Shown: positions 35,631-60,957, numbered from the stretch's first letter. The stretch: 64,000 nt of DNA from an uncultured Solirubrobacterales bacterium (GCA_963822535.1 CAWGIA010000001.1:172797-236796), one strand, 5' to 3'. The notes: generated by a model from the letters alone, not told the origin. Numbers and translations are program-made.

Positions 35631-35639
35631 CCTCGATCA

Positions 35640-36632: not shown

Positions 36633-36648
36633 CCCGCGGTCCCGGCGC

Positions 36649-37821: not shown

Positions 37822-37829
37822 ACGCCAAC

Positions 37830-37855: not shown

Positions 37856-37884
37856 GGCGGCTTGCGGTTCTGTCTTGATACTGC

Positions 37885-39206: not shown

Positions 39207-39258
39207 GGGGTTGCGATTCAGTCTTCGTACTGCTCAGACTGTGAGTTCCTACCGGCGT

Positions 39259-40712: not shown

Positions 40713-42629
40713 TCAATTGACCGGAGGAGAGATACGGCTGGCGGCGGCGTCTCCATCTACCCATAGCCGCTGCCACAGCTCGAGCATCAGGGCGCAGAAC
40801 AGGACCTGTGCGTTCTTGCGTCCACTCTCCCCAGCATCGGAGATCAACGCCTCCAGGGTGGCTGGATCGAGCTGCCCACGGTTCCGGGTGCGCGGATCGA
40901 GCATCACATCGCGCACGAATCCATCACGGTGCGTTCGCAGCCAATCCCCGAGAGCCGCGTTGAGGAAGCCGGTCTTCTTCTTCTTCAGCACGGAGTCGTC
41001 AACCAAGCCTCGGGCAGCCCGACGGAGGACCTCCTTGCGCCGGAGCAGCCAGACGCGCCGGCTGTTGGGCAAGGCGAGGGAGAAGCTGACCAGACGGTGG
41101 TCGACGAACGGCACGCGCACCTCGAGCGATGCCGACATCGACATCTTGTCGAAGTACAGGAACAGCTGATCCACAAGCGCCATCCGACGATCCAGCTCGA
41201 GCGTCTGATCGAGGATCGAAACCCCCTCGGGTAGCGCGTACTGAGTTACGGCCTCGAGCGCGGCGGCCTCTCCCACCGAGGAGCGGAAGCTATCCGTGAA
41301 CAACGCTGTGCGCATTTCGGGCCCCGTCACGCGGCTCATGGCCAGCAGACGTTCACCCGGGCTGTGGGCCGACAGGGCCGTCAGGCCTCGACTCAGCGTC
41401 GATCCGGCCGATGCGCGCGTTGCCAGGCCTGCGGCCAGCGGCACCCCACCGGGGATGCGGGCCACGAGATCCGCGCCGGCGGCGATCTGGTGCTTGCGGT
41501 AGCCACCGAAGAGCTCATCCGCCCCCTGCCCCGAAAGCGCCACCGTCACCTCGCGCCGAGCCAGCTGGCAGATGAGCTGAAAGCCGAGCGAGGACAGATC
41601 GGCGATCGGCTCCTCGATGTTCCAGAGCATGTCCTGGAGCGCCGCGGGATCGTCACGGAGTTCGATCTCGAGCTCGTGATGATCGGCTCCCAGCCGCTCG
41701 GCCACGCGGCGGGCGTCGGCCAGCTCATTGCTGGCGGGCAGCCCGGAGAACCCGATCGAGAAGGTCTTGATCGGCTGAGGGCTGGCCTCGGCCATGAGGG
41801 CCCCGATCAGCGAGGAGTCGACGCCACCGCTCAGCATCAGCCCCAGGGGCACATCGCTCACCATGTGCTCGCGAACTGAACGCCTCAAGATCGCCAAAAG
41901 CTCCTCGGTGTCGTCCTCCCAACTGGCCCTCGCACGCCGCTCCGGGATCTCGTCCCGCGGGTTCCAGTAGCTCTCCTCGCCCGTGATGCGCCCGTCCTCA
42001 TAGACCAGGATGCTGGCGGCCATCAGCTTCCTCACACCCGCGAACAGCGTGCGCGGACCGGGGACGTAGCCGTAGGCCATGAACAGCTCGGCTCCGACGG
42101 GATCCAGGCTGGGGGTGACGAGCCCTGCGGCCACGAGCGCCTTGACCTCGGAGGCAAAGGCCAGGCCGTCCGCCAGCTCAGCGACATACAGCGGCTTGAT
42201 CCCCAGGCGATCGCGAGCCAGCACCAGCCGGCGGCGGGCGCGATCCCACACGGCGATCGCGTACATCCCGGCGAGGTGACGTGGGAAGGCGATCCCGTGC
42301 TCCTCATACAGGTGCACGATCACCTCGGTGTCACAACGCGAGCTCAGGCGATGAGTGGATCCCAGCTCGGCCAGCAGCGAGCGGAAGTTGTAGATCTCGC
42401 CGTTCTGGATCGCATCGACCGTCTCGTCCTCGTTGGTGCTCGGCTGCCGTCCGCCTTCGACATCGATGATCGACAGCCGGCGCATGCCCAGGGCGATCCC
42501 GGGCTCCAGGAGCTCACCGCGGTCGTCCGGACCGCGGTGGCGCATGGCGTCGGTCATCGTCCGCAGGCGCTCAGGACTGAGCGGAACCTGCCTTGGGTCG
42601 CGTGCCACGACCCCGCAAATTCCGCACAC
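40713..42629 (-). CDS. asparagine synthase (glutamine-hydrolysing) family amidotransferase
   Basis: N-terminal nucleophile MCGICGV and the PP-loop SGGVDSS, 638 aa. Last gene of the GNAT-ACAD-A-CP operon. Confidence 0.85.
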   Translation of the reverse strand: MCGICGVVARDPRQVPLSPERLRTMTDAMRHRGPDDRGELLEPGIALGMRRLSIIDVEGGRQPSTNEDETVDAIQNGEIYNFRSLLAELGSTHRLSSRCDTEVIVHLYEEHGIAFPRHLAGMYAIAVWDRARRRLVLARDRLGIKPLYVAELADGLAFASEVKALVAAGLVTPSLDPVGAELFMAYGYVPGPRTLFAGVRKLMAASILVYEDGRITGEESYWNPRDEIPERRARASWEDDTEELLAILRRSVREHMVSDVPLGLMLSGGVDSSLIGALMAEASPQPIKTFSIGFSGLPASNELADARRVAERLGADHHELEIELRDDPAALQDMLWNIEEPIADLSSLGFQLICQLARREVTVALSGQGADELFGGYRKHQIAAGADLVARIPGGVPLAAGLATRASAGSTLSRGLTALSAHSPGERLLAMSRVTGPEMRTALFTDSFRSSVGEAAALEAVTQYALPEGVSILDQTLELDRRMALVDQLFLYFDKMSMSASLEVRVPFVDHRLVSFSLALPNSRRVWLLRRKEVLRRAARGLVDDSVLKKKKTGFLNAALGDWLRTHRDGFVRDVMLDPRTRNRGQLDPATLEALISDAGESGRKNAQVLFCALMLELWQRLWVDGDAAASRISPPVN

Positions 42630-42638: not shown

Positions 42639-42887
42639 TCAGCCGGCGAGCTTGGTCTCGACCAGGGCCCTGATGTGCTCGATCGTGCCGAAGTTGGCGG
42701 GGACGACGTCTGCGTCATCGATGTCCACGCCGAACTCCTCCTCGAGCCAGGCCACCAGGCGCAACAGGGCCATCGAGTCGATGACGCGCTTCTCGATCAG
42801 CGGATAGTCGTCAGTGAGCTCCTCCGGCGGGCCCTGCCAGCGCGCCTCCTCGATCAGGAAGCTTCGAATGCGCTGCGCATCTACCAC
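42639..42887 (-). CDS. acyl/peptidyl carrier protein
   Basis: 82 aa with the phosphopantetheine-attachment motif VIDSMALLRLV. GGAAGGGG lies upstream of the GTG start. Confidence 0.7.
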   Translation of the reverse strand: MVDAQRIRSFLIEEARWQGPPEELTDDYPLIEKRVIDSMALLRLVAWLEEEFGVDIDDADVVPANFGTIEHIRALVETKLAG

Positions 42888-42906
42888 TGGGTAACCCCTT
42901 CCGCCA

Positions 42907-44502
42907 CTAGCCTTGCAATGCCCGCCGGTCGACCTTGCCGGTCGTCAATTTCGGAAGCTCCGGGCGGAACTCGATCTCGTCCGGGATCATATAAGGCGGC
43001 AGCCGCTCACGCAGGCTCTGGATGATCTCGGGATCGGACACGGGTTGGCTCACGGCCACGTAGGCGCGGAGCCGATTGGTCACGTTCTCGTCCGGAACGG
43101 CGATGACCGCCGCCTCGACGATCACGTCGAGCGCGTGCAGGGCGGCTTCGATGTCGCCCAGCTCCACCCGGTAGCCGCGGGTCTTGATTTGGGCATCGCG
43201 GCGGCCGACGAAGATGAGCTCCCCTCCCGGCTCCCGGCGGACCAGATCTCCGGTCCGGTACAGGCGCTCCGTCCCGGATCGGCTGAGCACACGATCGGTC
43301 CGCTCAGGATCACCCCAGTAGCCGTGCATGACCGTGGGGCCGGAGATCAGAAGCTCACCCACCTCTCCGTCAGGCGCCTCGCCGCCCTCCTGAGTCTCGA
43401 TCCGCGCCGTCACGCCGCCGATTGGCCATCCGATCGGGAGCGGGTCCGGGGGCGGTGCGCCGGCCGGCACCTCGTACCAGGTACACACGTTGGTCTCCGT
43501 GGGGCCAAAGAAGTTCAGGTACCGAGCCTCGGGGAGAAGCTCCATCAGGCGCGCCAGGTGCTTGGTGGGAAACACCTCACCGGCGAACACGATCGCCCTC
43601 AGTGCGGGAAGGGAGCGCTGGCCGAGGGCTCCGTGCAGCACGAGCAAGGTCAGGGCCGAGGGAACCGAGTACCAGACGGTGATCGCCTCGGCTTCGATGA
43701 ACGCCGTCAGCTCCACCGGGAACACGGCCGCCGACCGGGGGACGAGCACGACGGCGGCGCCGGCCCAGGCGGCGGCGAACAGGTCGAACACCGATAGGTC
43801 GAAGTGAAACGGAGCGTGGCTCGACAGCCGGTCCTCGGCACCGATGCCAACCTCCTGAGCGGCCCACTCCACAAACGCCAAGGCGTTGCGGTGAGACAGG
43901 GTCACTCCCTTCGGCTCGCCGGTCGAGCCCGACGTGTACAGGATGTAGGCGATGTCATCCGGCCCGATGCCGGCCACGGATGGCGGCTCGGCGGAGCCCG
44001 ACATTTCCGGCCACGCGAGCACCGTCGGCCCGGCCGATTCGAGCTCCGGAAGCGAGGCGCCATTCGGAAGCGAGGCGCCGTTCGGAAGCGAGGCGCCGTT
44101 CGGAAGCGAAGCGCCGATCACGAGCTCGAGGTCCGTCCCGGCCTCGAGCAGGCGCTGCGCATCCTGGGTGCTCACTTCCGACGTGATCAGGCAGCGCATC
44201 CCGGCGTTGGCCACGATGTAGGCCAGCCGAGCCGCGGGCGCCTGGCTGTCCAGTGGGACGTAACCGGCTCCAGCCTTGAGCACGCCGTAGATCGCGACCA
44301 CCGCCTCGATCGACTTTTCGAGCAGGAGGCCGACGCGATCCCCGGGGCGGACCCCGTGGTCGATCAGGGTATGCGCCAGCCGATTCGCCGCTGACTCGAG
44401 CTCGCCGTAACTGAGGCGCCGATCACCGTCGACGACGGCCGTGCGCTCCGGATCGTCAGCCGCCGCGCGCTCCAGCAACCCGTGGATCAGCGTGGCGCTC
44501 AC
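42907..44502 (-). CDS. stand-alone adenylation enzyme (DltA/PltF-like amino acid--carrier protein ligase)
   Basis: Core motifs LKAGAGYVPLD, YILYTSGSTGEPKGV, FHFDLSVFD, FFGPTE, YRTGD and TGKVDR. The GTG start overlaps the ACAD stop (GTGA). The ORF is open to 44664. Confidence 0.85.
   Translation of the reverse strand: MSATLIHGLLERAAADDPERTAVVDGDRRLSYGELESAANRLAHTLIDHGVRPGDRVGLLLEKSIEAVVAIYGVLKAGAGYVPLDSQAPAARLAYIVANAGMRCLITSEVSTQDAQRLLEAGTDLELVIGASLPNGASLPNGASLPNGASLPELESAGPTVLAWPEMSGSAEPPSVAGIGPDDIAYILYTSGSTGEPKGVTLSHRNALAFVEWAAQEVGIGAEDRLSSHAPFHFDLSVFDLFAAAWAGAAVVLVPRSAAVFPVELTAFIEAEAITVWYSVPSALTLLVLHGALGQRSLPALRAIVFAGEVFPTKHLARLMELLPEARYLNFFGPTETNVCTWYEVPAGAPPPDPLPIGWPIGGVTARIETQEGGEAPDGEVGELLISGPTVMHGYWGDPERTDRVLSRSGTERLYRTGDLVRREPGGELIFVGRRDAQIKTRGYRVELGDIEAALHALDVIVEAAVIAVPDENVTNRLRAYVAVSQPVSDPEIIQSLRERLPPYMIPDEIEFRPELPKLTTGKVDRRALQG
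44047..44118 (-). repeat. 18-bp in-frame tandem repeat x4 ((GASLPN)3 GASLPE) inside the stand-alone adenylation enzyme
   Basis: Four consecutive units cggaagcgaggcgcc(a/g)tt; the last is slightly diverged. Confidence 0.9.
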
Positions 44503-45680
44503 AGGCCGAGATGTCGAGCGATCACGTTGCGCTGCATCTCCGATGTTCCGGAGTAGAGCTGTCCGCCCAGGGCGTCTCGGACGTCGCGCTCGAGGCCTGT
44601 CTCGGTGATGTAGCCGTAACCGCCATGGATCTGAACGGCATCGAGACTCGAGTGCACGAGGCACTCGCTGAGGTGCAGCTTGGTCATCGAGGCATCCAGA
44701 TCTGTGGCCGCGCCCTGGTCAAGCAGGCCGGCGATTCGGTACAGCATCAGGTGTGCGGTCTCGAGGCGGAGCTTCATATCGGCGATCTTGTGTGACACGG
44801 CCTGGAAGTTGCCGATTGGCTGGCCGAACTGAACCCGCTCCCGCGCGTAGTGAACGCAGCGCTCGAGCTGCCGGCGCATCGTGCCCACGGCAGCGCCCAG
44901 GATCAGGCTCCGCTCCCAGCGCATCGATGTATTGAAGATGGCCATGCCCGCCCCCTCGCTCCCCAGCAGCGCATCGGCCGGGATCGCGCAGTCAGCAAAG
45001 GACAACTCGCTCAGATGCGAGGTACGCAGGCCCATCTTCGAGTATTGCTGTCCCACGGTGAGACCGGGCGCGTCCCGCGTGATGAGAAACGCCGACAGCC
45101 CGGCGAAACCAAGGCTGCGATCGGTGGTGGCGAAGACGACAAACAGGTCACTCTCGGGCGCGTTGGTCACGAACGCCTTCGAGCCGTTGAGGATCCAGCC
45201 GCCGTCGCTGCGTACCGCCGTGCTGGTCAGGCTGAACGCGTCCGAGCCCGACGCCGGCTCGGTCATACCGTGAGCGGCGATCAGAGAACCGTCACACAGT
45301 GCGGGGAGATAGCGCTGCTTCTGCTCCTCGGTACCGAAATGGATCAGGGGGAGCTCGCAGGCCCACATCTGGGCGTTGAGCGAGAAGATCAGGCCGTTGT
45401 CGGCGCAGCCGTAGCCCAGGCCCTCGAGCGCGGCGGCAATCGTGGTGGCGCTGGCCCCGATACCGCCGTACTCCACCGGCACCGGGAGACCCATCAGATC
45501 CATCCGTGCGCACTTGACCCAGGCCTCGCGGGAGAACATTGCGTCCCGGTCACGCTCGTCCAACCCGCGGTTGAGCTCGCCCTGAGCGAACGCGGTCACC
45601 GCCGCGCGCAGCGATCGCTGCTCGTCGTCCAGTGGGTCCGGGCGCGGCGGGATGGCGCCGTCGCCGAACGGCCGTCTCAT
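44499..45680 (-). CDS. acyl-CoA dehydrogenase family flavoprotein
   Basis: ACAD N, middle and C-terminal domain pattern (HGMTEPASGSD, the QFGQPIGNFQAV region and the catalytic-base region IHGGYGY). The ATG overlaps the stop of the upstream GNAT-like gene (ATGA). Confidence 0.85.
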   Translation of the reverse strand: MRRPFGDGAIPPRPDPLDDEQRSLRAAVTAFAQGELNRGLDERDRDAMFSREAWVKCARMDLMGLPVPVEYGGIGASATTIAAALEGLGYGCADNGLIFSLNAQMWACELPLIHFGTEEQKQRYLPALCDGSLIAAHGMTEPASGSDAFSLTSTAVRSDGGWILNGSKAFVTNAPESDLFVVFATTDRSLGFAGLSAFLITRDAPGLTVGQQYSKMGLRTSHLSELSFADCAIPADALLGSEGAGMAIFNTSMRWERSLILGAAVGTMRRQLERCVHYARERVQFGQPIGNFQAVSHKIADMKLRLETAHLMLYRIAGLLDQGAATDLDASMTKLHLSECLVHSSLDAVQIHGGYGYITETGLERDVRDALGGQLYSGTSEMQRNVIARHLGL

Positions 45681-46579
45681 CGGGCCCCAGTGCTCGTCTG
45701 GCCGGCGCGCACCGGCACCAGGTAACGGGCGTAGCTCGTGAACGGGCGGTAGCCGAGACCCAGCCAAACCGGCGCGCCCAGGCTGGAGGTCTGGCACAGG
45801 GAGATGGTGGCGTCCATCTCCTCGAAGCTGTGGGCCAGGGCCACCCAGAGGCAGCTCTCGGCCAAACCCCGGCGCTCGCCCGGTGGTGCCGAGGGAGGAA
45901 GCCGCTGGCCCTTGCGGGGCCGGCGGATGGTCGCCGCCTGACAGCCGAGGGCAACGCCGTGGCTGACCAAGGTCATCGCGGCCGAAAGTGGCTGGTCATC
46001 GAAATAGGCCACATAAGCGGCTACGTGCGGATCGGCCAGGCTGTCGGGATCGAAGAAGACCCGGGCTGCCACCTCTCGCGGCATGGCACCCATGCCCCAT
46101 GCCTCGGACACCAAGCCCAAGTAGTCCTCGCGCGCGCTCGAGGTGTCCGTGCGCCGGATCTCGACCCCCTCCGGCGGAGGCAGGTACTCGGGCAGCGCGT
46201 CAAGCACGAGTTCGGGCAGGCGCTCGAGCTCGGATAGCCCTGTCCCCTGGGCCGCCGCCTCGATGTCGGCGTCGGCGTGCTCACGGGCCCATAGGGCATA
46301 GCCGCTGCTGCGAGCGCCGAAGAACGCCCCCGCACGCTCGAGCACCTGCTCGGCGCTCAATCCGGCGCCGATCCGCAGAGCGCCGTTGCGATATGGGTTG
46401 GGCTGGCGGTGCGCACCGGCGAACAACAGCAGGCCGTCTTCCTCGTGGATGGCGCCCCCGTACTGAGCCAGGTAGCGCAGGTATGCGGCCAGACTCAGGT
46501 CGGCGAGAGTCAGCAGATCCTCTCCCCCGTCCGGCCCATCCATGGCCGGCCTATGCACCGCACGAGCCCTCGTATCCAC
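45677..46579 (-). CDS. GNAT-like acyltransferase (weak assignment)
   Basis: The C-terminal half has a GNAT-like beta4-alpha3 region (AAYVAYFDDQPLSAAMTLV...RRGLAESCLWVALAHSFE). The N-terminal half is unassigned. Confidence 0.35.
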   Translation of the reverse strand: MDTRARAVHRPAMDGPDGGEDLLTLADLSLAAYLRYLAQYGGAIHEEDGLLLFAGAHRQPNPYRNGALRIGAGLSAEQVLERAGAFFGARSSGYALWAREHADADIEAAAQGTGLSELERLPELVLDALPEYLPPPEGVEIRRTDTSSAREDYLGLVSEAWGMGAMPREVAARVFFDPDSLADPHVAAYVAYFDDQPLSAAMTLVSHGVALGCQAATIRRPRKGQRLPPSAPPGERRGLAESCLWVALAHSFEEMDATISLCQTSSLGAPVWLGLGYRPFTSYARYLVPVRAGQTSTGAR

Positions 46580-46654: not shown

Positions 46655-47587
46655 GTGCTAGAGGGATCTAGCTCCGGGCTGTCTGCGGGTGGGGCGACGA
46701 GTGACGCGTCTCCGCTTCGCCGTGACCTAAGCAGCGACTCCGGAGCCACAACCACCGGACCGCGCCGAGAAATCTGGTTTCGGCGGCGGGTCAATCTCCC
46801 ATTTGCCTTCCGCGAGCTGTGGAGTTTCCGCGAACTGATCCTCACGCTAGCCGAGCGCGACCTCCGAATCCGCTACAAGCAGGCGACCCTGGGGCTCGCC
46901 TGGGCGGTCATCTCTCCGGTGATGATGATGATCGCCTTCACCCTGATCTTCACCAAGGTCGCGCACGTCAAGACCGGGGGGGTTCCCTACGCGCTGTTCT
47001 CCTACATGGGGCTCCTGCCGTGGACGTTCTTCTCCACGGCCCTCAGCCAGGGCGGGACCAGCCTGACCTCGAACGTGCCGCTGCTGAACAAGCTCTACTG
47101 CCCGCGAGAGGTGTTCCCGATCGCGGCGATTGCCGACGCGGCGGTGGACGCGCTGATCGCCACCTGCGTGCTGGCGGTCCTGTTCCCCATCACCGGCTTT
47201 GCTCCGCACGCGCAGATCTACTACCTCCCGCTGTATCTGATCGTTCTGTTGATGTTCACGCTCGGCGTGACGCTGGCGGTCTCGGCGACCGTGGTGTATA
47301 TGCGCGATTTCAGCCTCGTGCTGCCGATGGTCATCCAGCTCGGACTATTCATCACGCCGGTTGTGTACGGGCCGTCGTCGATTTCCAACTCGCAGACGTT
47401 CCTCGTCGTGTATTCGATCTTGAACCCCCTTGTGCCGGTGATCGACGGCATCCGTGGCAGCGTTCTGCACGGCTCGGCCCCCCAGTGGGGCGCCCTCGGA
47501 GCCGGCGCCGTCAGCTCGCTGGTGGTCCTGATCGCCGGCTTCGTGATGTTCAAGCGGCTCGAGACCGGAATGGCGGACATTGCTTAA
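46655..47587 (+). CDS. ABC-2 type polysaccharide exporter permease (Wzm/TagG-like)
   Basis: RELILTLAERDLRIRYKQATLGLAWAVISP is the family signature, followed by six TM segments. The N-terminal 50 aa are uncertain. Confidence 0.8.
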   Translation: MLEGSSSGLSAGGATSDASPLRRDLSSDSGATTTGPRREIWFRRRVNLPFAFRELWSFRELILTLAERDLRIRYKQATLGLAWAVISPVMMMIAFTLIFTKVAHVKTGGVPYALFSYMGLLPWTFFSTALSQGGTSLTSNVPLLNKLYCPREVFPIAAIADAAVDALIATCVLAVLFPITGFAPHAQIYYLPLYLIVLLMFTLGVTLAVSATVVYMRDFSLVLPMVIQLGLFITPVVYGPSSISNSQTFLVVYSILNPLVPVIDGIRGSVLHGSAPQWGALGAGAVSSLVVLIAGFVMFKRLETGMADIA

Positions 47588-48773
47588 CGGCACCATCGAA
47601 GCCGCGGAGGTGTGGAAGCGCTTCCGGCTCGACGAGCGTCCCACGTACCTGCAGGATCGGATCGCCCAGGTTGGCGATCGGCTCCGCAGTCGCGAGGGCG
47701 AGAGCTTCCGGTGGGCGCTGCGCGACATCAGTTTCGAGGCCGCGCCGGGCGAATCCTGGGCGCTGGTGGGCGCCAACGGCGCCGGCAAGTCAACTCTCCT
47801 GAAGATCATCTCGCGCGTCATGTACCAAACTGCCGGGCGGATCTCGCTGGCCGGGCGCGTGGGGGCCCTGATCGAGGTTCGCGCCGGGATTGCGCCGCTG
47901 CTCACCGGGCGCGAGAACATTTACCTGACCGGTTCGATCATGGGTCTCAAGCGCCGTGACGTCGCCAAGCGCTTTGACGAGATCGTGGCCTTCGCCGAGC
48001 TCGACCACGCCGTCGACCGGCAGGTCAAGTACTACTCCTCCGGGATGCAGATGCGCCTCGGGTTCGGGGTCGCCGCCTACCTGTCCCCGGACATTCTGCT
48101 CGTTGACGAGGTGCTGGCCGTGGGCGATGCCACCTTCCAGCAGCGGTGCCTGGAGCGCATCCGTCATGTGCTCAGCGAGGGCACCACGCTGCTGTTCGTC
48201 TCCCACGACCTGGCCGCGGTGGAGGCCACCTGCGCCAACGGCATCTGGGTCCACAACGGGGAGGTGCAGACCATGGGACCGATCCGGGACGTGCTCGGAT
48301 CCTACCGTGGAGCCGTCGAGGGTGAGGCCAAGGCCCGCCCCAAGATCGAGGGCCTGCTTCAGGTGCCCCATGTCAGCGCTGGCGCACCCGACGGCGGCCT
48401 GGTCAAGAGTGGCGAGACGCTCGATGTGAGCCTGACCCTGCAGAGCAATGAGAGCTGCCGCGCCTGGGTCTATCTCGGGATCAGCGAGGGTGACGCCAAG
48501 CCCATCTTCCTGGTCAACCCGGGCCGCGAAACGCTCCTGGATCCAGGGGGAACCACGATCAAGTGCTCGATCCCACGACTTCCGTTGCCGCGCGGGCGCT
48601 ACTACGTGTGGTGCGGGGTGTACAAGAACTGGACCAACGGCAAGGAGCTCCTGGGCTGGCAGCCGCTGACCGATTTCGACGTCTACGGTCCCGAGCTCGA
48701 TGCCGCCCCGACGGCAGTGGTGCGGACGTCCGCCCTGCACATCGATTCCGAGTGGGAGCTCGGCGACCGCTAG
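47580..48773 (+). CDS. polysaccharide ABC exporter ATP-binding protein (Wzt/TagH-like) with C-terminal extra domain
   Basis: Walker A GANGAGKST, signature YSSGMQMRLGF, Walker B ILLVDE, and TGRENIYL, typical of the Wzt/TagH/KpsT clade. A roughly 150-aa beta-rich C-terminal extension resembles the Wzt C-terminal glycan-binding domain. Confidence 0.85.
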   Translation: MLNGTIEAAEVWKRFRLDERPTYLQDRIAQVGDRLRSREGESFRWALRDISFEAAPGESWALVGANGAGKSTLLKIISRVMYQTAGRISLAGRVGALIEVRAGIAPLLTGRENIYLTGSIMGLKRRDVAKRFDEIVAFAELDHAVDRQVKYYSSGMQMRLGFGVAAYLSPDILLVDEVLAVGDATFQQRCLERIRHVLSEGTTLLFVSHDLAAVEATCANGIWVHNGEVQTMGPIRDVLGSYRGAVEGEAKARPKIEGLLQVPHVSAGAPDGGLVKSGETLDVSLTLQSNESCRAWVYLGISEGDAKPIFLVNPGRETLLDPGGTTIKCSIPRLPLPRGRYYVWCGVYKNWTNGKELLGWQPLTDFDVYGPELDAAPTAVVRTSALHIDSEWELGDR

Positions 48774-48805: not shown

Positions 48806-51800
48806 TCAGGTGGTTCCGGCGCCGTCCAGCGCCCGGGTGAGCTCGGCCGCCAGCAGCCCCACGTACGGCTGGTGCATCATGCGCTCGTGCTGGATTCCGG
48901 GGGCGATGATCTGCCGCAGGTTGACACCGCGGCCGGCCACGCTGTCCCACGGCGTGGGGCGTTTCTCTGCATCGGTCTGAGCGCGGAAGAAGTCCACCCG
49001 GATGTCCAGGGGTCGAGGTACATAACGTATCCGGGCCAGGTTGCTGGCGATCAGCACCAGGTTCCAGGGCCGCCGGGGCAGCCAGCCGTGCAGGCCGCGG
49101 GTGGACAGGACCTCGAATACACGGGGGCCGACGCGTATGTACGCAAGCTCGATCAGCCGGCGCTGGAGGCCCTTGGCCCGGATCCGGAGCCACTGGCGCC
49201 TGCCCTGACGGTCGGCGCTGCGGAGTGTCTGTAGCTGGGCCCGCTGGGCCTGGATGCGCCGCCGCCGCTTCCGGGGCTGCCACGGGTACGCGTCGAGCAA
49301 GGCTAGGAGCGAGACGTCCTCGCCGTCGGCCATGAGCAAACGCGCCATCTCGTAGGCCACCAGCCCGGAGAAGCAGAAGCCGCCCAGCCGGTAGGGACCG
49401 TGGCGCTGAACGCGCCGGACCTCGGCCACGTAATGGCGAGCCAGCGCGTCGACGCTGCCGAGCGGTGAGGCCTGGCGGTCGACGACCCCCGGGGCCTGGA
49501 GGCCATAGACCGGGAGGTCGGCCTCGAGGCTCTCAGCCAGGTCGCGGTAGGGCAACACCTCGCCGCCCGCCCATGCGACCAGGAACAGGGGCGTGCCCTG
49601 TCCGCCCTCGCGCAGGCGGACGACCGACCCCCAGTCGATCTTCTCCCGGCGGTCACGGTCGATCAGGTCAGCCAGGCCGGCGATCGTGTCAGTCTCGAAC
49701 AGCGCCGAGAGCGGCAACCGGACTCGGAGCTGGCGCTCGATCTCGGAGAACAGACGTACGGCGAGCAGCGAATGTCCGCCGAGCTCGAAGAAGCTGTCCT
49801 GGACGCCGATCCGCTCGACCCCCAGCACCTCGCTCCAGAGCGGCGCCAGCGCGAGCTCGGTGGCCGTGGTGGGCGGGGCGAACTCCTGGGCGGCGGCCGC
49901 GCGGCTGAACTCGGGGGCCGGCAACGCCTTGACGTCCAGCTTTCCGTTCCGGGTCAGGGGCAGGGCGTCAATGAACACCCAGGCGGCGGGAATCATGAAG
50001 CTCGGCAGACGGTCAGCCAGGAACGAACGGAGCTCATCGGCCCCGGGCGGATGGGCGCCGTCCACGGCGACGATGTAGGCGGCGAGACGGACATCCCCGC
50101 TCTGAGCCGGTGAGGCGATTACCGTGGCCTCGTTCACTGCGGGATGGGTCCCGAGCGCCGCCCGAATCTCCCCCAGCTCGATCCGGAACCCCCGGATCTT
50201 GACCTGGTCATCCATCCGGCCCCGGAAGTCGAGTTCGCCCCCCGGCAGGCGGCGTGCCACATCGCCGGTGCGGTACAGGCGTCCGGGCCCGAACGGGTTC
50301 TCGATGAAGCGCTCCGCGGTCAGCTCGGAGCGGTTCAGGTAACCCCGAGCCACCCCGGCACCCCCGACGAACAGCTCGCCCACCACGCCCCGCGGGACGG
50401 GCTCGCGGTGGCGATCGAGCAGGTACAGGCTGAGATCTGGAATCGGCTCGCCGATCGGGCTGGCCGCGGACTCGCAGTCGGCGGCGAGAAGGGGACGGTA
50501 GGTCACGTGCACCGTCGTCTCGGTGATCCCGTACATGTTCACGAGCTCCGGACCCGAGTCACCAAAACGCTCGAACCAGGGCCGCAGAGCCGGCGGCTCG
50601 AGGGCCTCTCCGCCGAAGATGACCGTCCGGAGCGCCAGGCGCTCGGCCCGCTGCAGGAGCGCATCCTGGATCCCCAGGAAGAGGCTCGGGGTCGCGTTGA
50701 GGACGGTCACCTCCTGATCGCTGATCGCGGCGGCCAGCACGGCCGGGGTCCGCGTGGTCAGCCGGGGGGTGATCACCAGCCGGCCGCCGTGCGCGAGTGC
50801 ACCCCACAGCTCCCAGACACTGAAGTCGAACGCGTATGAGTGCAGCAACGTCCACACGTCGGAGGGCCCAAAGCCGTACCAGGCCTCGGTGGCGGAGAAC
50901 AGACGGGCGACCTGGCGGTGCTCGACCTGAACGCCCTTCGGACGCCCGGTGGAGCCCGAGGTATAGATCACGTAGGCGAGATCCTCGGGGCGGGCCAGCG
51001 GCTCGGGATTCTCCGCGCTCTGTTGGGCCAGCGCATCGACCTCCTGGTCCAGGCAGATGACCTGGGCCGGGCCCTCCGGCAGGCGGTCGAGCACCGAGCT
51101 GTGCAGAACGACGATCGGAGCGCCGGTGTCCTCGAGCACGAATGACAGACGCTCAGCCGGGTACTCGGGGTCCAGCGGCACGTAGGCCCCGCCGGCCTTG
51201 AGCACGCCCAGGATCGCGGCCAGCATCTCGAACGAGGGCTCGAGCAGCAGCGCGACGAGCGAACCCGGGCCGACACCCCGGGACCTGAGGCAGTGGGCAA
51301 CCTGGTTGGCACGGCGGTTGAGCTCCTCGTAGGAGATCGCGGCGCCGTCATGGGTGGCGGCGATGGTCTGCGGCCGCTCGGCCGTCGCCCGCTCGAACAG
51401 CTCGTGCATGCAGGCGACCGGGTAATCCGCCTGGGTCGCCGCTCCCGCGGCCAGGGCGAGCTCGCGCTCCTCCTCGTCCAGCAGCGGCAGCTCGGACATC
51501 GGCCGTGCCGGATCCTCGAGCGCGGACCGGAGCAGGTTCATGTAGTGGGAGAGCATCCGCTCGACGGTGGCCTCATCGAACAGGTCAGTCGAGTACTCGA
51601 TTGACAGGCGCAGGCCGTCCGCGGTCTCGGCGCCGTACAGACCAAGGTCGAACTTCGTCGTGCGTCGTGCGCCGGACACGCGCGCGGTCTGCAGGTCCTC
51701 GAGCCCCAGCGGCTCCTCGACGGTATTCAGCGCGAAGCTGACCTGGGCCAGGGGCGGGAAGCTCAGCTGGCGATCCGGGTTGAGCTCCTCGACGAGCTTC

Positions 51801-54800
51801 TCGAAGGGCAGGTCCTGATTGCTGAACGCCCCGACGGCGGTCTTGCGCACATCGTGCAGGAGCTGGCGGAACGACGGGTCATCCTCAAGGCTCGCGCGCA
51901 GCGGAAGAGTGTTGACGAAGAATCCGATCAGCCCCTCGAGCTCGGCGCGATTTCGGTTCGCCACCGGAGAGGCCACCACCACGTCCTCCTGCCCGCTATA
52001 GCGCGACAGAAGGCCCACAAATGCGGCCAGCAGCGTCATGAACAGGGTCGTCCCCTCACCCTCGCCGAGCTGCTTGACCTGGGCCAGCTCTGCCGGCCCC
52101 AGCAACTGGCGCACAACTGCACCTTTGAAGGTCTGCCGAGCCGGCCGGGGCCGGTCAGTGGGGAGCTCGAGCAGTGCCGGCGCCCCGGCCAGTTGCTCCC
52201 GCCAGTATTCGAGCTGCTGATCCAGGCCGCCGCTGCGCAGCCATTCCTGCTGCCAGGCGGCGAAGTCCCCGTACTGGATCGCGAGTGGCGCCAGCTCCGG
52301 ATCCTCGCCCCGGTGGTAGGCGCGGTACAGGGTCGAGAGCTCCCGCTGGAACACGCCGATCGACCAACCGTCGACGATGATGTGGTGCAGCGTGATGATC
52401 AGGATGTGATCGTCGGCGGCGAGGTCGATCAGGGCCGCCCTCAGAAGCGGACCGCTCGACAGGTCAAAGCCCCGGCCGGCCTCGGCGCCGACCAGGCGCT
52501 GGGCCGCCTCCTCGGCGTCCGGCGCCCCCTGAAGATCGGTCACGGCGAGAGGGACAGGGCCGGGCGCAGACACCACCTGATGGGGCGCGCCATCGATCAC
52601 GGCGAAGGTGGTTCGCAGTGACTCGTGGCGAGCGACGAGCTCGTCCAGGGCCCGGCGCAGGGCCGGCACGTCGAGCGAACCGGCCAGACGCACCGCCATG
52701 GGAACGTTGTAGGCGGGGTTGTCAGGCTCGAGCCGGTCAAGGAACCACAGCCGCTGCTCGGCATACGAAGCCGGCAGCACCACGCGCTCATCCTCCGAAC
52801 CCTCCATCCGGCGCGCCTCTCGCGGCGCAGGCAGGATCGGAGGCAGCGAGACGGCGGTGACCTGACTGCCGGCACCGCGAAGGACCGCCGCGAGGCCGGC
52901 GATCGTCGGGCTGTCGAAGATCGCGCTGAGCGCGAGCTCCACATCGAGCCGGTCACGGACGCGGGAGACCAGCCGCACCGCCAGCAGCGAGTGGCCCCCG
53001 AGCGCGAAGAAGTTGTCATCGCGCCCCACACGCTCAAGACCGAGCAGCTCGGCCCAGACATCGGCCAGCGCCTGCTCGGTGTCATCGACGGGCGGGGCGT
53101 ACTCAGCGGTCATCCGCGCCCGGTCATCCGGGGCGGGCAGCGCACGGCGGTCGACCTTGCCGTTGGGGCTCAAGGGATACTCGGCCAGCGTCACGAACGC
53201 CGCGGGAATCATGTATGCGGGCAGCGTTCGAAGCAGGAAATCGTGCAGCTCAGCCGCAGTCGGACCCGGCTCGTCCACTCGCAGGTACGCCACCAGACCG
53301 GCGCCGCTGCCGTCATCGTCGCGGGTCAGGACCAGCGCCTCCCGCACCGAGCTGTGATCGCGCAGCGCGGCCTCGATCTCACCCGGCTCGATGCGATAGC
53401 CCCGCACCTTGACCTGGTGGTCAATCCGGCCGAGAAACTCGATATTGCCGTCCGGCAGGTAACGCGCGAGGTCACCGGTGCGGTACATCCGGGTGCCGCT
53501 TCCGCTGCTCAGCGGATCCTCGACGAAGCGCTCGGCGGTCAGCTCGGGACGGCCCAGATAGCCGCGGGCCAGGGACACACCGCCGATGCAGAGCTCGCCC
53601 GGCACCCCAATCGGTACCGGCTGCAGGTGACGGTCGAGCAGGCGGACCCTGGCGCCGGAGATCGGGCGGCCGATCGGCGGGAGCGACGGCCACTCCTGCG
53701 CTTCGCCCGACAGGCGCAGGGCCGTGACGACATGGCTCTCGGTGGGGCCATAGTGGTTAAACAGCGTGCACTGCTGGTGCCGGGAGAAAAATCGGCGTAC
53801 GGCGGGGGTCACCTTCAGCTGCTCCCCAGCGGTGATGATCTCCCGCAGATCGGCAACCGACTGCTCGCTGTGCTCGGCCGCCTCGCACAGGTTCTGCAGC
53901 GCCACGAACGGCAGGAACAGGCGCTCGACGCGCTCGTGCGCGAGCAGCCTGAGGAGACCTTCGGGGTCGCGGCGGACCGCCTCGTCGGCCAACACCAGCG
54001 TGCCGCCCGAGCACCAGGTGGAGAAGATCTCCTGGAACGCGACGTCGAACGACAGCGAGGCGAACTGAAGGGTGCGGGCGGGACCCGGCGCAGTGCTGTG
54101 GAGCTGCCAGGCCAGCAGGTTGGCCAGCGGCCGATGAGGCATTGCCACGCCCTTGGGCTGCCCCGTGGAACCTGACGTGTAGAGAACGTAGGCGAGGTTG
54201 TCGGGCGTGGGCTCGGCTGGCGCTGGGACGTTCTCCGCGGAGACGGTCGACTCCCAATCGGAGTCAAGGCAGACGGTGAGCGCGTCCCGGTCCGGCAGGC
54301 CGGACAGCAGATGCTGCTGGGTGAGCAGAACGGGGGCGTCGGAGTCGGCCAGCATGAACTTGATCCGCTCGGCCGGGTAAGCCGGATCGATCGGCGCGTA
54401 GGCGCCGCCCGCCTTGAGCACACCGAGCACGGCCACCACCATTTCCACCGAGCGCTCGGCACAGATCGCCACCACGGTGTCCGGTCCGACCCCGAGCTCA
54501 CGCAGGTGAGACCCCAGCCGGTCGGCCTGGGCATCGAGATCGGCGTAGCTGAGGCGCTGGCCCGCGTGGTCCACAGCGATCGCCTGCGGGGTGCGGCGGG
54601 CCTGGTCAGCCACGAGCTCGTGCACGCACCGTGGGGCTGGGCTCTCGGTCTCCCCCCCGGTGCTCCAGCGGTCGAGCACCAGCTCTCGCTCCTCGGCCGG
54701 GAGCAGGTTCAGCTCGGACACCGGGCGGGAAGGATCGGCGAGGATCGCCTCGAGCAGCGTCTCGAAATGCCGCAGCATCCGCTGGATCGTGGTCTCGTCG

Positions 54801-56044
54801 AACAGATCCGAGCAGTACTCGATCGACACCCTCAGGCCCGCCGGCACCTCGCCCGCGAACAGGGCCAGGTCAAATTTCGCTGTCCCGCGATCGGTCGAGA
54901 CGCGCTCGTGCTCGAGGCCGGAGAAATGGATCGGCCTCTCGGCGGCGTTCTGGAGCACGAACAGGACCTGCGCGACCGGCGCGTGGCTGCGATTCCGGTC
55001 GGGATTGAGCTCCTGGACGAGGCGCTCGAACGGCAGGTCCTGATTGGAGAACGCCTCGAGCGCGGTCTCGCGGACGCCGCGCAGGAGCTCGACGAACGAT
55101 GGGTCAGGCGCCATATCGACGCGGAGCGCCAGCGTGTTGACCAGCAATCCGATGAGCTGCTCGAGCTCGACGCGGCTCCGATTGGCCACCGGGGTGGCCA
55201 CGACGACGTCATCCTGGCCGCTGTAGCGCGCCAGCATGACGGCGAAGGCGCTCAGCAGGGTCATGAACAGCGTGCTCCCCTCCCGCTCGCTCAGGGCGCG
55301 GAGCCGCTGGAGCAGCTCGGACGGCAGGACCGTCCGCAGGGTCGCGCCCCGGAAGCTCTGCTCGGAAGGGCGCGGGCGGTCAGTGGGTAGCTCGAGCAGA
55401 GCGGGCGCGCCGGCCAGCTTCGTCGTCCAGTATTCGAGCTGCTGATCGAGGCCGCCGCTCTCCATCCACTGCTGCTGCCACACGGCATAGTCGGCGTACT
55501 GGAGCGCCAGCGCCGGCAGCTCGACGGGCCGTCCCTCGACCAGCGCGCCGTAGATGGCGGCGAGCTCACGATTGATCACCCCCACCGACCAGCCGTCGGT
55601 GACGATGTGATGGATCGTCAGCGACAGAACGTGGTCTTGATCTCCGAGCCGGATCAGCGTCACGCGCAGCAACCGGTCGCGCCCGAGGTCGAACCCCTGG
55701 CGGCCGTCGGCGGCGACGAGCTCCAGGGCCCGCTCCTCGGCGTCCGCGTGAGCGCTGACATCGATCACCTCGAGGTCCAGCGGGAAGGGCGGTTTGATGA
55801 GCTGATGCGGGACCCCGTCAACGAGCGTGAACACCGTCCGCAGCGACTCGTGCCGCTCGACGAGAGTGGTCAGGGCGCGCCCGAGCGCGTCGACGTCAAG
55901 CGGACCACGCAGCCTGGTGACCGTGGGCACGTTGTAGGCGGCGCCGCCGCCCTCGAGCCGATCGAGAAACCACATGCGCTGCTGCGCGAACGACGCCGGC
56001 AGGACGAGTGGCTCGTTGCTCAGCTCAGTCGATTCGATCTGCAA
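48806..56044 (-). CDS. non-ribosomal peptide synthetase, C-A-T-C-A-T-TE (hand codes: Pro, Thr; TE with Cys nucleophile)
   Basis: Two C domains (HHIVTDGWS, HHIIVDGWS), two A domains ([24 protein letters not shown]; FDVAFQE at 54030-54050; FDFSVWE at 50810-50830) and two T domains (GGHSLLAVRL). The TE carries GFCFSG. TTG start with GAGGAG upstream. Confidence 0.95.
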   Translation of the reverse strand: MQIESTELSNEPLVLPASFAQQRMWFLDRLEGGGAAYNVPTVTRLRGPLDVDALGRALTTLVERHESLRTVFTLVDGVPHQLIKPPFPLDLEVIDVSAHADAEERALELVAADGRQGFDLGRDRLLRVTLIRLGDQDHVLSLTIHHIVTDGWSVGVINRELAAIYGALVEGRPVELPALALQYADYAVWQQQWMESGGLDQQLEYWTTKLAGAPALLELPTDRPRPSEQSFRGATLRTVLPSELLQRLRALSEREGSTLFMTLLSAFAVMLARYSGQDDVVVATPVANRSRVELEQLIGLLVNTLALRVDMAPDPSFVELLRGVRETALEAFSNQDLPFERLVQELNPDRNRSHAPVAQVLFVLQNAAERPIHFSGLEHERVSTDRGTAKFDLALFAGEVPAGLRVSIEYCSDLFDETTIQRMLRHFETLLEAILADPSRPVSELNLLPAEERELVLDRWSTGGETESPAPRCVHELVADQARRTPQAIAVDHAGQRLSYADLDAQADRLGSHLRELGVGPDTVVAICAERSVEMVVAVLGVLKAGGAYAPIDPAYPAERIKFMLADSDAPVLLTQQHLLSGLPDRDALTVCLDSDWESTVSAENVPAPAEPTPDNLAYVLYTSGSTGQPKGVAMPHRPLANLLAWQLHSTAPGPARTLQFASLSFDVAFQEIFSTWCSGGTLVLADEAVRRDPEGLLRLLAHERVERLFLPFVALQNLCEAAEHSEQSVADLREIITAGEQLKVTPAVRRFFSRHQQCTLFNHYGPTESHVVTALRLSGEAQEWPSLPPIGRPISGARVRLLDRHLQPVPIGVPGELCIGGVSLARGYLGRPELTAERFVEDPLSSGSGTRMYRTGDLARYLPDGNIEFLGRIDHQVKVRGYRIEPGEIEAALRDHSSVREALVLTRDDDGSGAGLVAYLRVDEPGPTAAELHDFLLRTLPAYMIPAAFVTLAEYPLSPNGKVDRRALPAPDDRARMTAEYAPPVDDTEQALADVWAELLGLERVGRDDNFFALGGHSLLAVRLVSRVRDRLDVELALSAIFDSPTIAGLAAVLRGAGSQVTAVSLPPILPAPREARRMEGSEDERVVLPASYAEQRLWFLDRLEPDNPAYNVPMAVRLAGSLDVPALRRALDELVARHESLRTTFAVIDGAPHQVVSAPGPVPLAVTDLQGAPDAEEAAQRLVGAEAGRGFDLSSGPLLRAALIDLAADDHILIITLHHIIVDGWSIGVFQRELSTLYRAYHRGEDPELAPLAIQYGDFAAWQQEWLRSGGLDQQLEYWREQLAGAPALLELPTDRPRPARQTFKGAVVRQLLGPAELAQVKQLGEGEGTTLFMTLLAAFVGLLSRYSGQEDVVVASPVANRNRAELEGLIGFFVNTLPLRASLEDDPSFRQLLHDVRKTAVGAFSNQDLPFEKLVEELNPDRQLSFPPLAQVSFALNTVEEPLGLEDLQTARVSGARRTTKFDLGLYGAETADGLRLSIEYSTDLFDEATVERMLSHYMNLLRSALEDPARPMSELPLLDEEERELALAAGAATQADYPVACMHELFERATAERPQTIAATHDGAAISYEELNRRANQVAHCLRSRGVGPGSLVALLLEPSFEMLAAILGVLKAGGAYVPLDPEYPAERLSFVLEDTGAPIVVLHSSVLDRLPEGPAQVICLDQEVDALAQQSAENPEPLARPEDLAYVIYTSGSTGRPKGVQVEHRQVARLFSATEAWYGFGPSDVWTLLHSYAFDFSVWELWGALAHGGRLVITPRLTTRTPAVLAAAISDQEVTVLNATPSLFLGIQDALLQRAERLALRTVIFGGEALEPPALRPWFERFGDSGPELVNMYGITETTVHVTYRPLLAADCESAASPIGEPIPDLSLYLLDRHREPVPRGVVGELFVGGAGVARGYLNRSELTAERFIENPFGPGRLYRTGDVARRLPGGELDFRGRMDDQVKIRGFRIELGEIRAALGTHPAVNEATVIASPAQSGDVRLAAYIVAVDGAHPPGADELRSFLADRLPSFMIPAAWVFIDALPLTRNGKLDVKALPAPEFSRAAAAQEFAPPTTATELALAPLWSEVLGVERIGVQDSFFELGGHSLLAVRLFSEIERQLRVRLPLSALFETDTIAGLADLIDRDRREKIDWGSVVRLREGGQGTPLFLVAWAGGEVLPYRDLAESLEADLPVYGLQAPGVVDRQASPLGSVDALARHYVAEVRRVQRHGPYRLGGFCFSGLVAYEMARLLMADGEDVSLLALLDAYPWQPRKRRRRIQAQRAQLQTLRSADRQGRRQWLRIRAKGLQRRLIELAYIRVGPRVFEVLSTRGLHGWLPRRPWNLVLIASNLARIRYVPRPLDIRVDFFRAQTDAEKRPTPWDSVAGRGVNLRQIIAPGIQHERMMHQPYVGLLAAELTRALDGAGTT

Positions 56045-56064: not shown

Positions 56065-59467
<3,403 letters not shown>

Positions 59468-59700
59468 TTGTCTACTCCTAGCCCGCTTGCAACGAGAGAG
59501 CCCTCTGCCCGGCTCCGCCCGCAGACCAACCCGCCCCTAGTGATTCTCTTCACCCACACCAGATTATGACATGTGCGGGTTGTTGCTCGCGTTTGGTTTG
59601 CTAGTCTGCCCGGCGTCAGCGGCAAGGAGGACCGTCGACGGGTTGTACCCCATACGCCGGGAACGTCTAACCGCCTTTGCGCAGCGCTTCCATCGCCGGC

Positions 59701-60957
59701 ATGAAACCTATTCTCACCAAGCCCATGACCCCCCACCTCACCCTGCGTCGGCTCGGAGTCCTGCTGGTGGCACTGCTGGCCGGCTGCGCTATCTCCGCCT
59801 GCGGGTCCGCAGGCTCCACGGCGACGTCCGGGCAGGGACAACATGCCGGTGACGGGTCCGGGACCGGGACCGCCCCGGTGCCGGTGAGCGCCTTCCCGAC
59901 GCCCGTCATTCACCGCGGCACCGGACTGCTGGGAAGTGGGCAATCATCATCGGCCAAGGTTCCTCTCGTCATCGCATTACACGGTGGCGGCGGCGCCACT
60001 CCGGCCCTGTTCGAGAACGCCACAGGGCTGGATCAGGTGGCCAACCAGCACAATCTCGTCGTCGCTTACCTGGGCTCTCCCCTGCCGCTGTGGAAGAACC
60101 CCTCGGATATCACCTACATCGGCAACATGATCAAGCAGCTGGAGAGCTCCGAGAACATCGACCCCAACCGGGTCTATGTGGTCGGCTTCTCGCTGGGTGG
60201 CTATGCGACCTTCCGCTCGGCCTGCGAGCTCAGCTCACAGGTGGCCGGGGTGGCGATCGTGTCAAGCGCGATGGCGCCCCTGGCGCACAAGCCCTGCCCA
60301 GTAACCCGGCCCGTGTCAGAGCTCTCGATCGTGGGCACCAACGACCTCTTCCCGGTCCACAAGAGCTCCTCATCACCGATCAGCGCCGACGCCACCGCAT
60401 CCATGTGGCGGACGCTTGACGGATGCAGCTCCAGCTCCTCCACCTCTCAGGTTGGCCCGACCACCCAGACGACGTGGAGCAAATGCAACGGCGGCGCCGA
60501 GGTGGGCGAATACGTGGTCAGCGGCGGTACGCACCGGTGGCCCGGTTCCCCCGGCTCGGTGGGCGCCGACGGCCAGTACAACGCCGACACGGCGATCTGG
60601 TCCTTCCTGTCCAAGCACAGCGCCAGCTCAGCCAAGATCTCTGCCGCCGTGAGCTCCCTTCGGGTGACCCGGGGGCACTCCCGTCAGGTCCGCCTCGTGC
60701 TGAACCCGATCGCGGAGTCATCCGCGGTGCTGCTCATGGTGCTCTCGGCCCACGGGCGCAAGCTGGCCTCCAAGCGCATTACGCTGCACGGCGGCCGCCG
60801 GAGCACCAGCATCTTGAATGTGCCTCGGCGCGCGAAGGCGGGGCGCGACCCACTGGTGCTCAACTTCGTTGACAGCTACGGCCACCGGCAGACGATCGTG
60901 CGCACGGTGACGATTCCGGCCCTGCCGTCCTCGCACCACTCCGGCAAGCACTCCTAG
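59701..60957 (+). CDS. lipoprotein esterase, PHB-depolymerase/feruloyl-esterase-like alpha/beta hydrolase with C-terminal beta-rich domain
   Basis: Lipobox LLAGC after a basic/hydrophobic leader. Contains LVIALHGGGG and the nucleophile elbow VVGFSLGGYA. The ORF is open from 59677. Confidence 0.65.
   Translation: MKPILTKPMTPHLTLRRLGVLLVALLAGCAISACGSAGSTATSGQGQHAGDGSGTGTAPVPVSAFPTPVIHRGTGLLGSGQSSSAKVPLVIALHGGGGATPALFENATGLDQVANQHNLVVAYLGSPLPLWKNPSDITYIGNMIKQLESSENIDPNRVYVVGFSLGGYATFRSACELSSQVAGVAIVSSAMAPLAHKPCPVTRPVSELSIVGTNDLFPVHKSSSSPISADATASMWRTLDGCSSSSSTSQVGPTTQTTWSKCNGGAEVGEYVVSGGTHRWPGSPGSVGADGQYNADTAIWSFLSKHSASSAKISAAVSSLRVTRGHSRQVRLVLNPIAESSAVLLMVLSAHGRKLASKRITLHGGRRSTSILNVPRRAKAGRDPLVLNFVDSYGHRQTIVRTVTIPALPSSHHSGKHS

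Follow-up and report, generated by a model that had tools for sequence, protein, structure and literature searches.

The window analysed here, a 64,000-nucleotide stretch of DNA from an uncultured Solirubrobacterales bacterium (GCA_963822535.1 CAWGIA010000001.1:172797-236796), encodes a nonribosomal peptide synthetase (NRPS) whose terminal thioesterase (TE) carries a Cys at the catalytic position. This TE joins the known, under-studied type I NRPS TEs with a Cys nucleophile and is part of a gene cluster conserved in Solirubrobacterales. On balance, it was read as a type I Cys TE of established lineage, with an EntF-like triad, whose peptidyl thioester is probably released by the amine of an ornithine (Orn)-like residue. 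The terminal NRPS gene and its domains were located as follows.

48806-56044, minus strand: terminal NRPS gene, 2412 amino acids (aa), C-A(Pro)-T-C-A(Thr)-T-TE (translation and Pfam domains).
53090-54622, minus strand: A domain of module 1, code DVQFIAHVVK, Pro-type (GrsA-equivalent positions).
49940-51397, minus strand: A domain of module 2, code DFWNIGMVHK, Thr (GrsA-equivalent positions).
49670-49861, minus strand: terminal T domain, with the codon of the phosphopantetheine Ser2092 at 49769-49771 (Pfam PP-binding, GGHS motif).
48809-49627, minus strand: TE domain (PF00975 at 83 bits, AlphaFold2 model, Foldseek).

In the 2412-aa NRPS, Pfam recognised Condensation, AMP-binding and PP-binding domains, two of each, and at the C-terminus a PF00975 Thioesterase. 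It looks functional because HHxxxDG is retained in both C domains and GGHS in both T domains. The TE domain directly follows the PP-binding domain and was matched to PF00975 well above the gathering cut-off (83 bits vs 26.4), over residues 2152-2264 and profile positions 2-116 of 226, i.e. by the N-terminal half of the profile alone. By this match it is assigned to the type I NRPS/PKS thioesterases (alpha/beta hydrolases) and is predicted to catalyse release. At the GrsA-equivalent positions, a Pro-type module (DVQFIAHVVK) and then a Thr module (DFWNIGMVHK) were read, the second code being the one that had been read by hand in an earlier note on this DNA. It matched exactly the textbook Thr code (Stachelhaus code), and Thr is the predicted substrate of module 2.

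Three residues were assigned to the putative catalytic triad.

49373-49375, minus strand: TGC codon, Cys2224, nucleophile in GGFCFSG (codon check, alignments, model, 18/18 family members).
49292-49294, minus strand: GAC codon, Asp2251 (Cys+27), triad acid at the EntF-like position after beta6 (model and conservation).
48887-48889, minus strand: CAC codon, His2386 in PGIQHERMM, triad histidine (alignment, conservation, model).

Cys2224 sits within GPYRLGGFCFSGLVAYEMA (TGC codon 49373-49375). Alignments to solved TEs were obtained by a phmmer search of the TE against all PDB sequences. In these, Cys2224 shares a column with the catalytic Ser in NocB-TE (GGWSFGG) and in Skyxy-TE (GWSLGS); that column holds Ala in the Skyxy S-to-A mutant 7dxo and Cys in AB3403 (GGWCFGG). 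His2386 was aligned to the His of NocB-TE 'PGAHERLF'. In a family alignment of 18 members (43-61% identical), the three columns held Cys in 18/18, Asp in 17/18 with Glu in 1/18, and His in 18/18. The TE was modelled using AlphaFold2 with 18 homologues as input (pLDDT 87.3, pTM 0.86). In the model, TE residue 96 (Cys2224) occupies the nucleophile elbow, with strand 90-95 before it and helix 97-111 after it; TE residue 123 (Asp2251) is placed directly after strand 116-122, and TE residue 258 (His2386) in the loop after strand 246-252, i.e. after beta8. The elbow motif reads G-F-C-F-S, a small deviation in that the final Gly of the motif is Ser in 16/18 relatives. Cys2224 was taken as the nucleophile because the PDB alignments, the topology of the model, the placement of Asp and His and the conservation in the family agree. 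The predicted Cys-Asp-His triad has the ordinary EntF-like arrangement within a canonical alpha/beta-hydrolase topology.

The position of the Cys and the candidate His in PGIQHERMM, both proposed by eye in the earlier note, were thereby confirmed by alignment, conservation and the model. The TGC codon is also genuine: an assembly error was ruled out by the presence of Cys in all 18 aligned members, though the assembly holds indel errors. The genomic loci nearest to the window, L001-L004, L009 and L081, likewise have Cys at this position. Ser2226 of GFCFSG was considered as an alternative nucleophile and rejected; it lies in the helix past the elbow in the AlphaFold2 model and is Gly or Ala in some relatives.

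The TE lid (approximately 48950-49270; TE residues ~127-215) is unusually long and Arg-rich (QPRKRRRRIQAQRAQLQ...RRLIE...LPRRPWNLV). A block of it, PRRPWNLVL.ASNLAR.RYVP, is kept across the TE family.

The affinity of the TE to known enzymes was examined by sequence and by structure. Run against the PDB, the family profile retrieved AB3403 first (3.4e-30), then Skyxy-TE, NocB-TE, the oocydin branching TE, FAS, PksA, EntF and Pks13. The top three Foldseek matches of the model were Skyxy-TE, AB3403 and NocB-TE. The type II TE RifR scored weakly (E 0.026-0.15). ObiF1 (6n8e) was matched neither by the TE alone nor by the family profile at E<=10 in PDB sequences containing 6n8e; its entry was present in the sequence database and was reached through its C and A domains. 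Entries for ObiF or SulM were absent from the Foldseek top 50. Kinship with ObiF and SulM was rejected on the ObiF1 miss and on the lack of ObiF and SulM entries in the Foldseek top 50. The TE groups with ordinary type I TEs (AB3403, Skyxy, NocB, FAS, EntF, Pks13), which goes against the mode of release proposed in the earlier note.

The frequency of Cys among related TEs was estimated by a phmmer search over 1.84 billion cluster representatives (50% identity), which gave 19,179 matches at E<=1e-10. At the aligned nucleophile position, the best 150 of these 19,179 representatives comprised 67 with Cys and 76 with Ser, and Cys was present in 54 of the nearest 75. A neighbour-joining tree of 73 TEs placed the window TE within a Cys clade and showed separate Cys and Ser clades with approximately seven switches. 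The 73-TE sample is partly biased, as the search pattern contained Cys; the search of representatives is free of that bias. Cys is thus a conserved lineage trait, and the type I TE branch that bears it is widespread among uncultured soil bacteria, including Solirubrobacterales, Acidobacteriota, Verrucomicrobiota and Chloroflexota. Such TEs are common in the sequence space near the window TE and few have been studied; no large-scale survey of Cys TEs turned up in the literature searched. The statement in the earlier note that Cys TEs are rare therefore holds for characterized enzymes and fails in sequence space. To our knowledge, the characterized Cys thioesterases are a mere handful (ObiF, SulM, BulbE and sorangibactin), and in each the Cys enables a difficult release.

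The code of the terminal A domain was readable for 34 of the Cys representatives within the best 150. None was of the Thr type and two were of the Ser type; the others were of Gly, Val/Ile, Pro, Orn-like, Asn/Asp and Ala types or of a recurrent DIEDIGTVVK type. Cys therefore occurs in a large type I TE branch of uncultured soil bacteria without being tied to beta-hydroxy C-terminal residues, and for this reason the equation of a Cys TE with a strained four-membered ring is unsafe as a genome-mining rule.

The nearest relatives of the TE were sought in 185,579 species genomes, and the nucleophile and the preceding A code were read at each locus. They came from metagenome-assembled genomes (MAGs) of Solirubrobacteraceae or Solirubrobacterales and from MAGs labelled just 'uncultured Actinomycetes'.

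L001: TE 61% identical to that of the window, preceded by Orn-like and then Pro (DVQFIAQVVK) modules; GGFCFSG.
L002: TE 59% identical, preceded by Orn-like and then Pro (DVQFIAQVVK) modules; GGFCFSG.
L081: TE 57% identical, preceded by Orn-like and then Pro (DVQFIAQVVK) modules; GGFCFSG.
L004 and L009: TE 43-48% identical, with the Orn-like module immediately before a Cys TE.

The Orn-like codes of the related loci read DVGE[IV]S[AS]IDK. Among close cluster representatives, the same GGFCFSG TE comes directly after Pro in P0047 and P0048 and after an Orn/Arg-like residue in P0050 and P0051. Neither Pro nor Orn has a beta-hydroxyl. An ABC ATPase, an ABC permease, a 300-aa gene, an acyl-CoA-dehydrogenase-like gene, a stand-alone A domain and a small peptidyl carrier protein (PCP) follow one gene order in L001, L004 and L081, and the ABC ATPase is 75-77% identical to that of the window in L001 and L004. 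Because these flanking genes are common to the three loci in one order, the related loci are orthologous clusters, beyond mere domain similarity. The Pro module of the window is 65% identical to that of L002, and the terminal T domain is 66-76% identical to those of L001, L002 and L004. Compared with L001, L002 and L081, only the window has the Thr module (49640-52819); the T-TE is 57-76% identical. Since the same TE stands after Orn, Orn-Pro or, in the window only, Orn-Pro-Thr, the Thr module is a lineage-specific addition between the Pro module and an older T-TE.

Only A42, D71 and R86 (TE numbering) distinguish the window TE from the 80% family consensus, and none of these three positions is catalytic. 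Because these are the only departures, the sequence gives no sign that the TE was re-tuned for a Thr substrate. The Cys is independent of the identity of the C-terminal residue and is not an adaptation to Thr.

These observations bear directly on the ObiF/SulM-like beta-lactone that the earlier note had suggested for a Cys TE beside a Thr module. In that account, the beta-OH of Thr would attack the acyl-enzyme thioester as in ObiF, yielding a peptidyl-threonine beta-lactone. The nucleophile is indeed a Cys, the A domain directly before the TE is Thr-coded, and the Cys TE of ObiF forms a beta-lactone from a beta-hydroxy amino acid (PMC6668435). However, the orthologous GGFCFSG TEs come after Pro or Orn, and the active site of the window TE is unchanged relative to theirs. 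The triad acid is EntF-like, and this arrangement, when engineered into ObiF1, is reported to have sterically hindered the loading of its Cys with substrate (PMC6668435). The TE alone has no detectable affinity to ObiF1, and the Foldseek top 50 held no ObiF or SulM; the Gln-Cys-Asn motif of SulM is missing, Phe-Cys-Phe being present instead; and Thr was absent from the 34 readable terminal codes, in which Ser occurred twice. Beyond the adjacency of Cys and Thr, the proposal was thus left without positive support, and such a product is very improbable. That an EntF-like Cys TE took to closing a peptidyl-threonine beta-lactone after the gain of the Thr module is, if anything, still harder to credit; if true, it would be a second, independently evolved NRPS route to beta-lactones.

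The Orn-like residue on which the favoured release depends is encoded immediately upstream.

56065-59467, minus strand: upstream module C-A(Orn-like, ...SIDK)-T, in five frame segments (tblastn vs the L002 and L001 Orn modules).

In the proposed mechanism, the peptidyl chain ...-Orn-Pro-Thr would pass from the pantetheine of the T domain to Cys2224 by transthioesterification, giving a peptidyl-S-enzyme thioester. An amine would then resolve this thioester, a step that we infer. The likeliest nucleophile would be the delta-amine of the Orn-like residue conserved in the family, with formation of a macrolactam; the ring would have 12 members in the window, and 9 and 6 in the relatives with fewer modules. 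Alternatively, a free external amine could be the nucleophile. Release by an amine was proposed because thioesters are favoured over oxoesters in aminolysis, but not in hydrolysis (PMC11536411), and because three of the four characterized Cys TEs (SulM, BulbE and sorangibactin) use nitrogen nucleophiles. In SulM, the nucleophile is the sulfamate nitrogen (PMC11298585). The C-to-S mutant of BulbE-TE hydrolyses only, and the thioester was argued to favour aminolysis (PMC11536411).

Hydrolytic release is the chief alternative to this. Here the TE would give a linear acid, and the Cys would be a near-neutral lineage variant of Ser. Swaps between Cys and Ser do occur among close TE relatives (approximately 7 in 73; 67 Cys vs 76 Ser in the best 150), the acceptance of C-terminal Orn, Pro or Thr by one TE type across orthologous clusters fits an undemanding hydrolase, and similar hydrolysis rates have been argued for thioesters and oxoesters (PMC11536411). 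Yet the invariance of Cys in the family (18/18) and in whole clades suggests selection, and the change of Cys to Ser abolished the natural product in ObiF, SulM, BulbE and sorangibactin (PMC6668435, PMC11536411, PMC10127202). As a way of resolving the thioester, hydrolysis may be rated nearly as likely as attack by an amine; the complete account, with Cys as a near-neutral variant, is possible but not favoured.

Several points weigh against amine release by an EntF-like Cys TE. Many macrolactam-forming TEs use Ser, so that Cys is no proof of aminolysis, and 9- and 12-membered lactams are uncommon. The triad geometry was judged through topology and conservation of a predicted model, and Glu2360, in the loop after beta7 (D/E in 14/18 relatives, His/Gly in 4/18), could in principle be an alternative triad acid. 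A neighbouring tandem-GNAT gene might acylate the Orn side chain and so remove that nucleophile. The start of the assembly line is beyond the window or ambiguous, so further internal nucleophiles would be out of view. Finally, the Orn module contains four frameshifts and, if they are real, the pathway is inactive.

These frameshifts are +1 insertions near 58195-58198, 57552-57585, 57372-57375 and 57082. By tblastn, the Orn module is collinear with the intact Orn modules of L002 and L001 at 72-84% identity, in frames -1/-2/-3/-1/-2. A further upstream NRPS module has one frameshift (+1 insertion) near 62530-62550, and glycine dehydrogenase subunit 2 (GcvPB; 12162-13659, minus strand) is split by a frameshift at ~13300-13400 into two overlapping open reading frames (ORFs), 13051-13659 and 12162-13406. 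Homopolymer slippage was not supported as the cause, the insertions being outside long homopolymers. The cluster could be decaying and non-functional, which would make the chemistry of the TE moot; the four +1 insertions in the Orn module and the one in the upstream module, none in a long homopolymer, are what such decay might leave. Against it, the broken Orn module is still 72-84% identical to intact orthologues along its full length, the five shifts all go in one direction and look technical rather than mutational, a housekeeping gene (GcvPB, 12162-13659) is frameshifted as well, and the 7.2-kb terminal gene is intact with all core motifs. Because the pieces are collinear at 72-84% identity, the shifts have one direction and a housekeeping gene is also split, the frameshifts are probably assembly errors rather than gene decay, and loss of the pathway was considered unlikely.

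The genes around the terminal NRPS gene and the Orn module were annotated as follows.

46655-48773, plus strand: ABC-2 permease (46655-47587) and ABC ATPase (47580-48773) (Pfam; syntenic with the TE gene).
45677-46579, minus strand: 300-aa protein with a tandem-GNAT acyltransferase fold (AlphaFold2 pLDDT 80, Foldseek).
42639-45797, minus strand: proline-activation cassette (dehydrogenase, stand-alone A domain, 82-aa PCP).
44499-45797, minus strand: prolyl-carrier-protein dehydrogenase homologue, AnaB/RedW/PigA-like (best PDB match 4irn, 2e-126).
42907-44664, minus strand: stand-alone A domain, PltF-like, code DLFYVAFV-K (best stand-alone-enzyme PDB match 6o6e, 8e-95).
42639-42887, minus strand: 82-aa PCP (PF00550, VIDSM motif).
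59677-60957, plus strand: alpha/beta hydrolase, PHB-depolymerase-like esterase (Pfam, NCBIfam; L002 and L081 have a homologue at the corresponding position).
60988-64000, minus strand: further NRPS module C-A(DLPQVGMV-K)-T, continuing past the window end (Pfam, tblastn frames).

Homologues of the ABC permease and ATPase in L001, L004 and L081 are 63-77% identical. The 300-aa protein (45677-46579) had no match in Pfam or NCBIfam; the top Foldseek matches of its model were the GNAT 4ius, VipF, MshD, the clavulanate tandem GNAT and the self-resistance enzyme PamZ. It has 356 homologues at E<=1e-5; the best 120 of these 356 are 68-93% identical, are named 'hypothetical protein' and come mostly from soil metagenomes, the few taxon labels being Solirubrobacterales or Actinobacteria. 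From its modelled fold, a role in tailoring or in self-resistance is possible.

In the proline cassette, the top NCBIfam matches of the dehydrogenase (44499-45797) were the RedW and PigA models, though below their cut-offs, and 6o6e, the match of the stand-alone A domain, is an L-proline--[prolyl carrier protein] ligase. The code of this A domain was likened to DLFYLALVCK, presumably a Pro code; a literature search for that code gave no match. The cassette is kept beside the NRPS in L001, L004 and L081, with the same gene order in L081, and suggests a dehydroprolyl or pyrrolyl (pyrrole-2-carboxyl) building block. Lipoinitiation with a fatty-acyl starter had been considered from the acyl-CoA-dehydrogenase-like and AMP-binding genes and was replaced after the NCBIfam and PDB results, which favour the prolyl-carrier-protein cassette. 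The N-terminal part of the stand-alone A domain contains a tandem hexapeptide repeat at residues ~195-218 (LPNGASLPNGASLPNGASLPE), which may be a genuine insertion or an artefact of assembly, and the domain is 585 aa long in the window vs 504 aa as called in the L081 orthologue.

Where the assembly line starts is uncertain. A starter-type C domain in the Orn module was not supported: its best solved relatives are elongation C domains (Txo1/2, TycC), and the CDA starter C was matched at 1e-12. In the window, the Orn module and the further NRPS module are set apart by the esterase gene, which lies on the opposite strand. In L002 (1-1236), a T-TE-like region of its own closes the NRPS gene upstream of the esterase, and the Orn-Pro line of that locus may be a separate two-module assembly line. 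The counterpart of this NRPS gene in the window has its stop at 60988, just past the T domain. The Orn module of L004 directly follows a module whose code is of the type seen in the further module of the window.

A homologue of the asparagine synthase at 40713-42629 was not found in the L004 flank; in L081, asparagine synthase genes occur slightly further downstream, among polysaccharide lyase and sulfotransferase genes. Because of these two observations, the gene was attributed to an adjoining polysaccharide locus rather than to the NRPS cluster, an assignment that is undecided. This polysaccharide-type locus (28141-40509) adjoins the NRPS cluster in L081 too, and encodes an NAD-dependent epimerase/dehydratase, several GT4 glycosyltransferases, a methyltransferase, a sulfotransferase and two polysaccharide-lyase-like proteins. 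Elsewhere in the window, a 721-aa ORF (19444-21609, minus strand) combines a MurB region (FAD_binding_4 and MurB_C) with an N-terminal DUF559/REase_MTES_1575 endonuclease-like region, a combination that may reflect a gene fusion or an ORF called too long.

The Solirubrobacterales cluster family offers a natural module series, in which Orn, Orn-Pro or Orn-Pro-Thr comes before an almost unchanged T-TE and which could be used to probe the role of the Cys and the tolerance of such TEs. The practical value is modest: the TE is a plausible target for enzymology rather than a case of demonstrated new chemistry.

Compared with known systems, the TEs of ObiF/ObiF1 (obafluorin beta-lactone) and SulM (sulfazecin beta-lactam) share with the window TE a Cys nucleophile and a terminal position in an NRPS. 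They also resemble the window alone, and not its orthologues, in a C-terminal residue with a beta-substituent able to cyclise; a C-terminal beta-nucleophile is not consistent in the present family, Thr being found in the window only and Pro or Orn-like residues in the orthologues. In ObiF and SulM, the catalytic Asp is on a later strand, as in RifR, with Gly at the EntF-like site (PMC6668435, PMC11298585), whereas by sequence and topology the window TE keeps the EntF-like Asp, as do 17/18 relatives. The window TE reads Phe-Cys-Phe where SulM has Gln-Cys-Asn. SulM has an Arg-lined sulfamate pocket; the lid of the window TE is Arg-rich.

The sorangibactin/coelibactin TE, compared by description, is likewise a terminal NRPS TE with an essential active-site Cys, but it belongs to a thiazoline/oxazoline siderophore-type assembly line. 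For the sorangibactin Cys TE, release with a free amino acid has been proposed (PMC10127202). Skyxy-TE (7crn) and NocB-TE (6ojc/6ojd) have, like the window TE, the GPYxLxG-x-nucleophile block, Asp at +27 and the His in 'PG.HE', and unlike it a Ser nucleophile. Both are bifunctional, epimerising the C-terminal residue before cyclisation or hydrolysis.

Cys TEs in which the Asp is at its ordinary position, namely AB3403 and BulbE-TE (PMC11298585, PMC11536411), share the arrangement of the window TE. BulbE-TE, of the bulbiferamide synthetase of Microbulbifer, is a type I TE that needs its Cys for amide-forming release. Its triad is Cys961/Asp988/His1097, with Asp after beta6, and these published positions give the same Cys/Asp/His set and the same 27-residue Cys-Asp spacing as in the window TE (PMC11536411). 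Unlike in the window, where no Trp module was seen, its nucleophile is a Trp indole nitrogen. AB3403 (ABBFA_003403; PDB 4zxh/4zxi) of Acinetobacter baumannii is, like the window TE, a terminal type I NRPS TE with an elbow Cys and Asp at Cys+27 (GGWCFGG vs GGFCFSG). It differs in coming from another phylum, in its low identity (~22% over the full domain, Foldseek), in its single C-A-T-TE module and in its canonical G-x-C-x-G, of which the last Gly is Ser in the window. By sequence, the Cys TE of AB3403 is the closest solved relative of the window TE, which combines the Cys and the Asp at +27 that characterize the Cys-nucleophile type I TEs represented by AB3403 and BulbE-TE.

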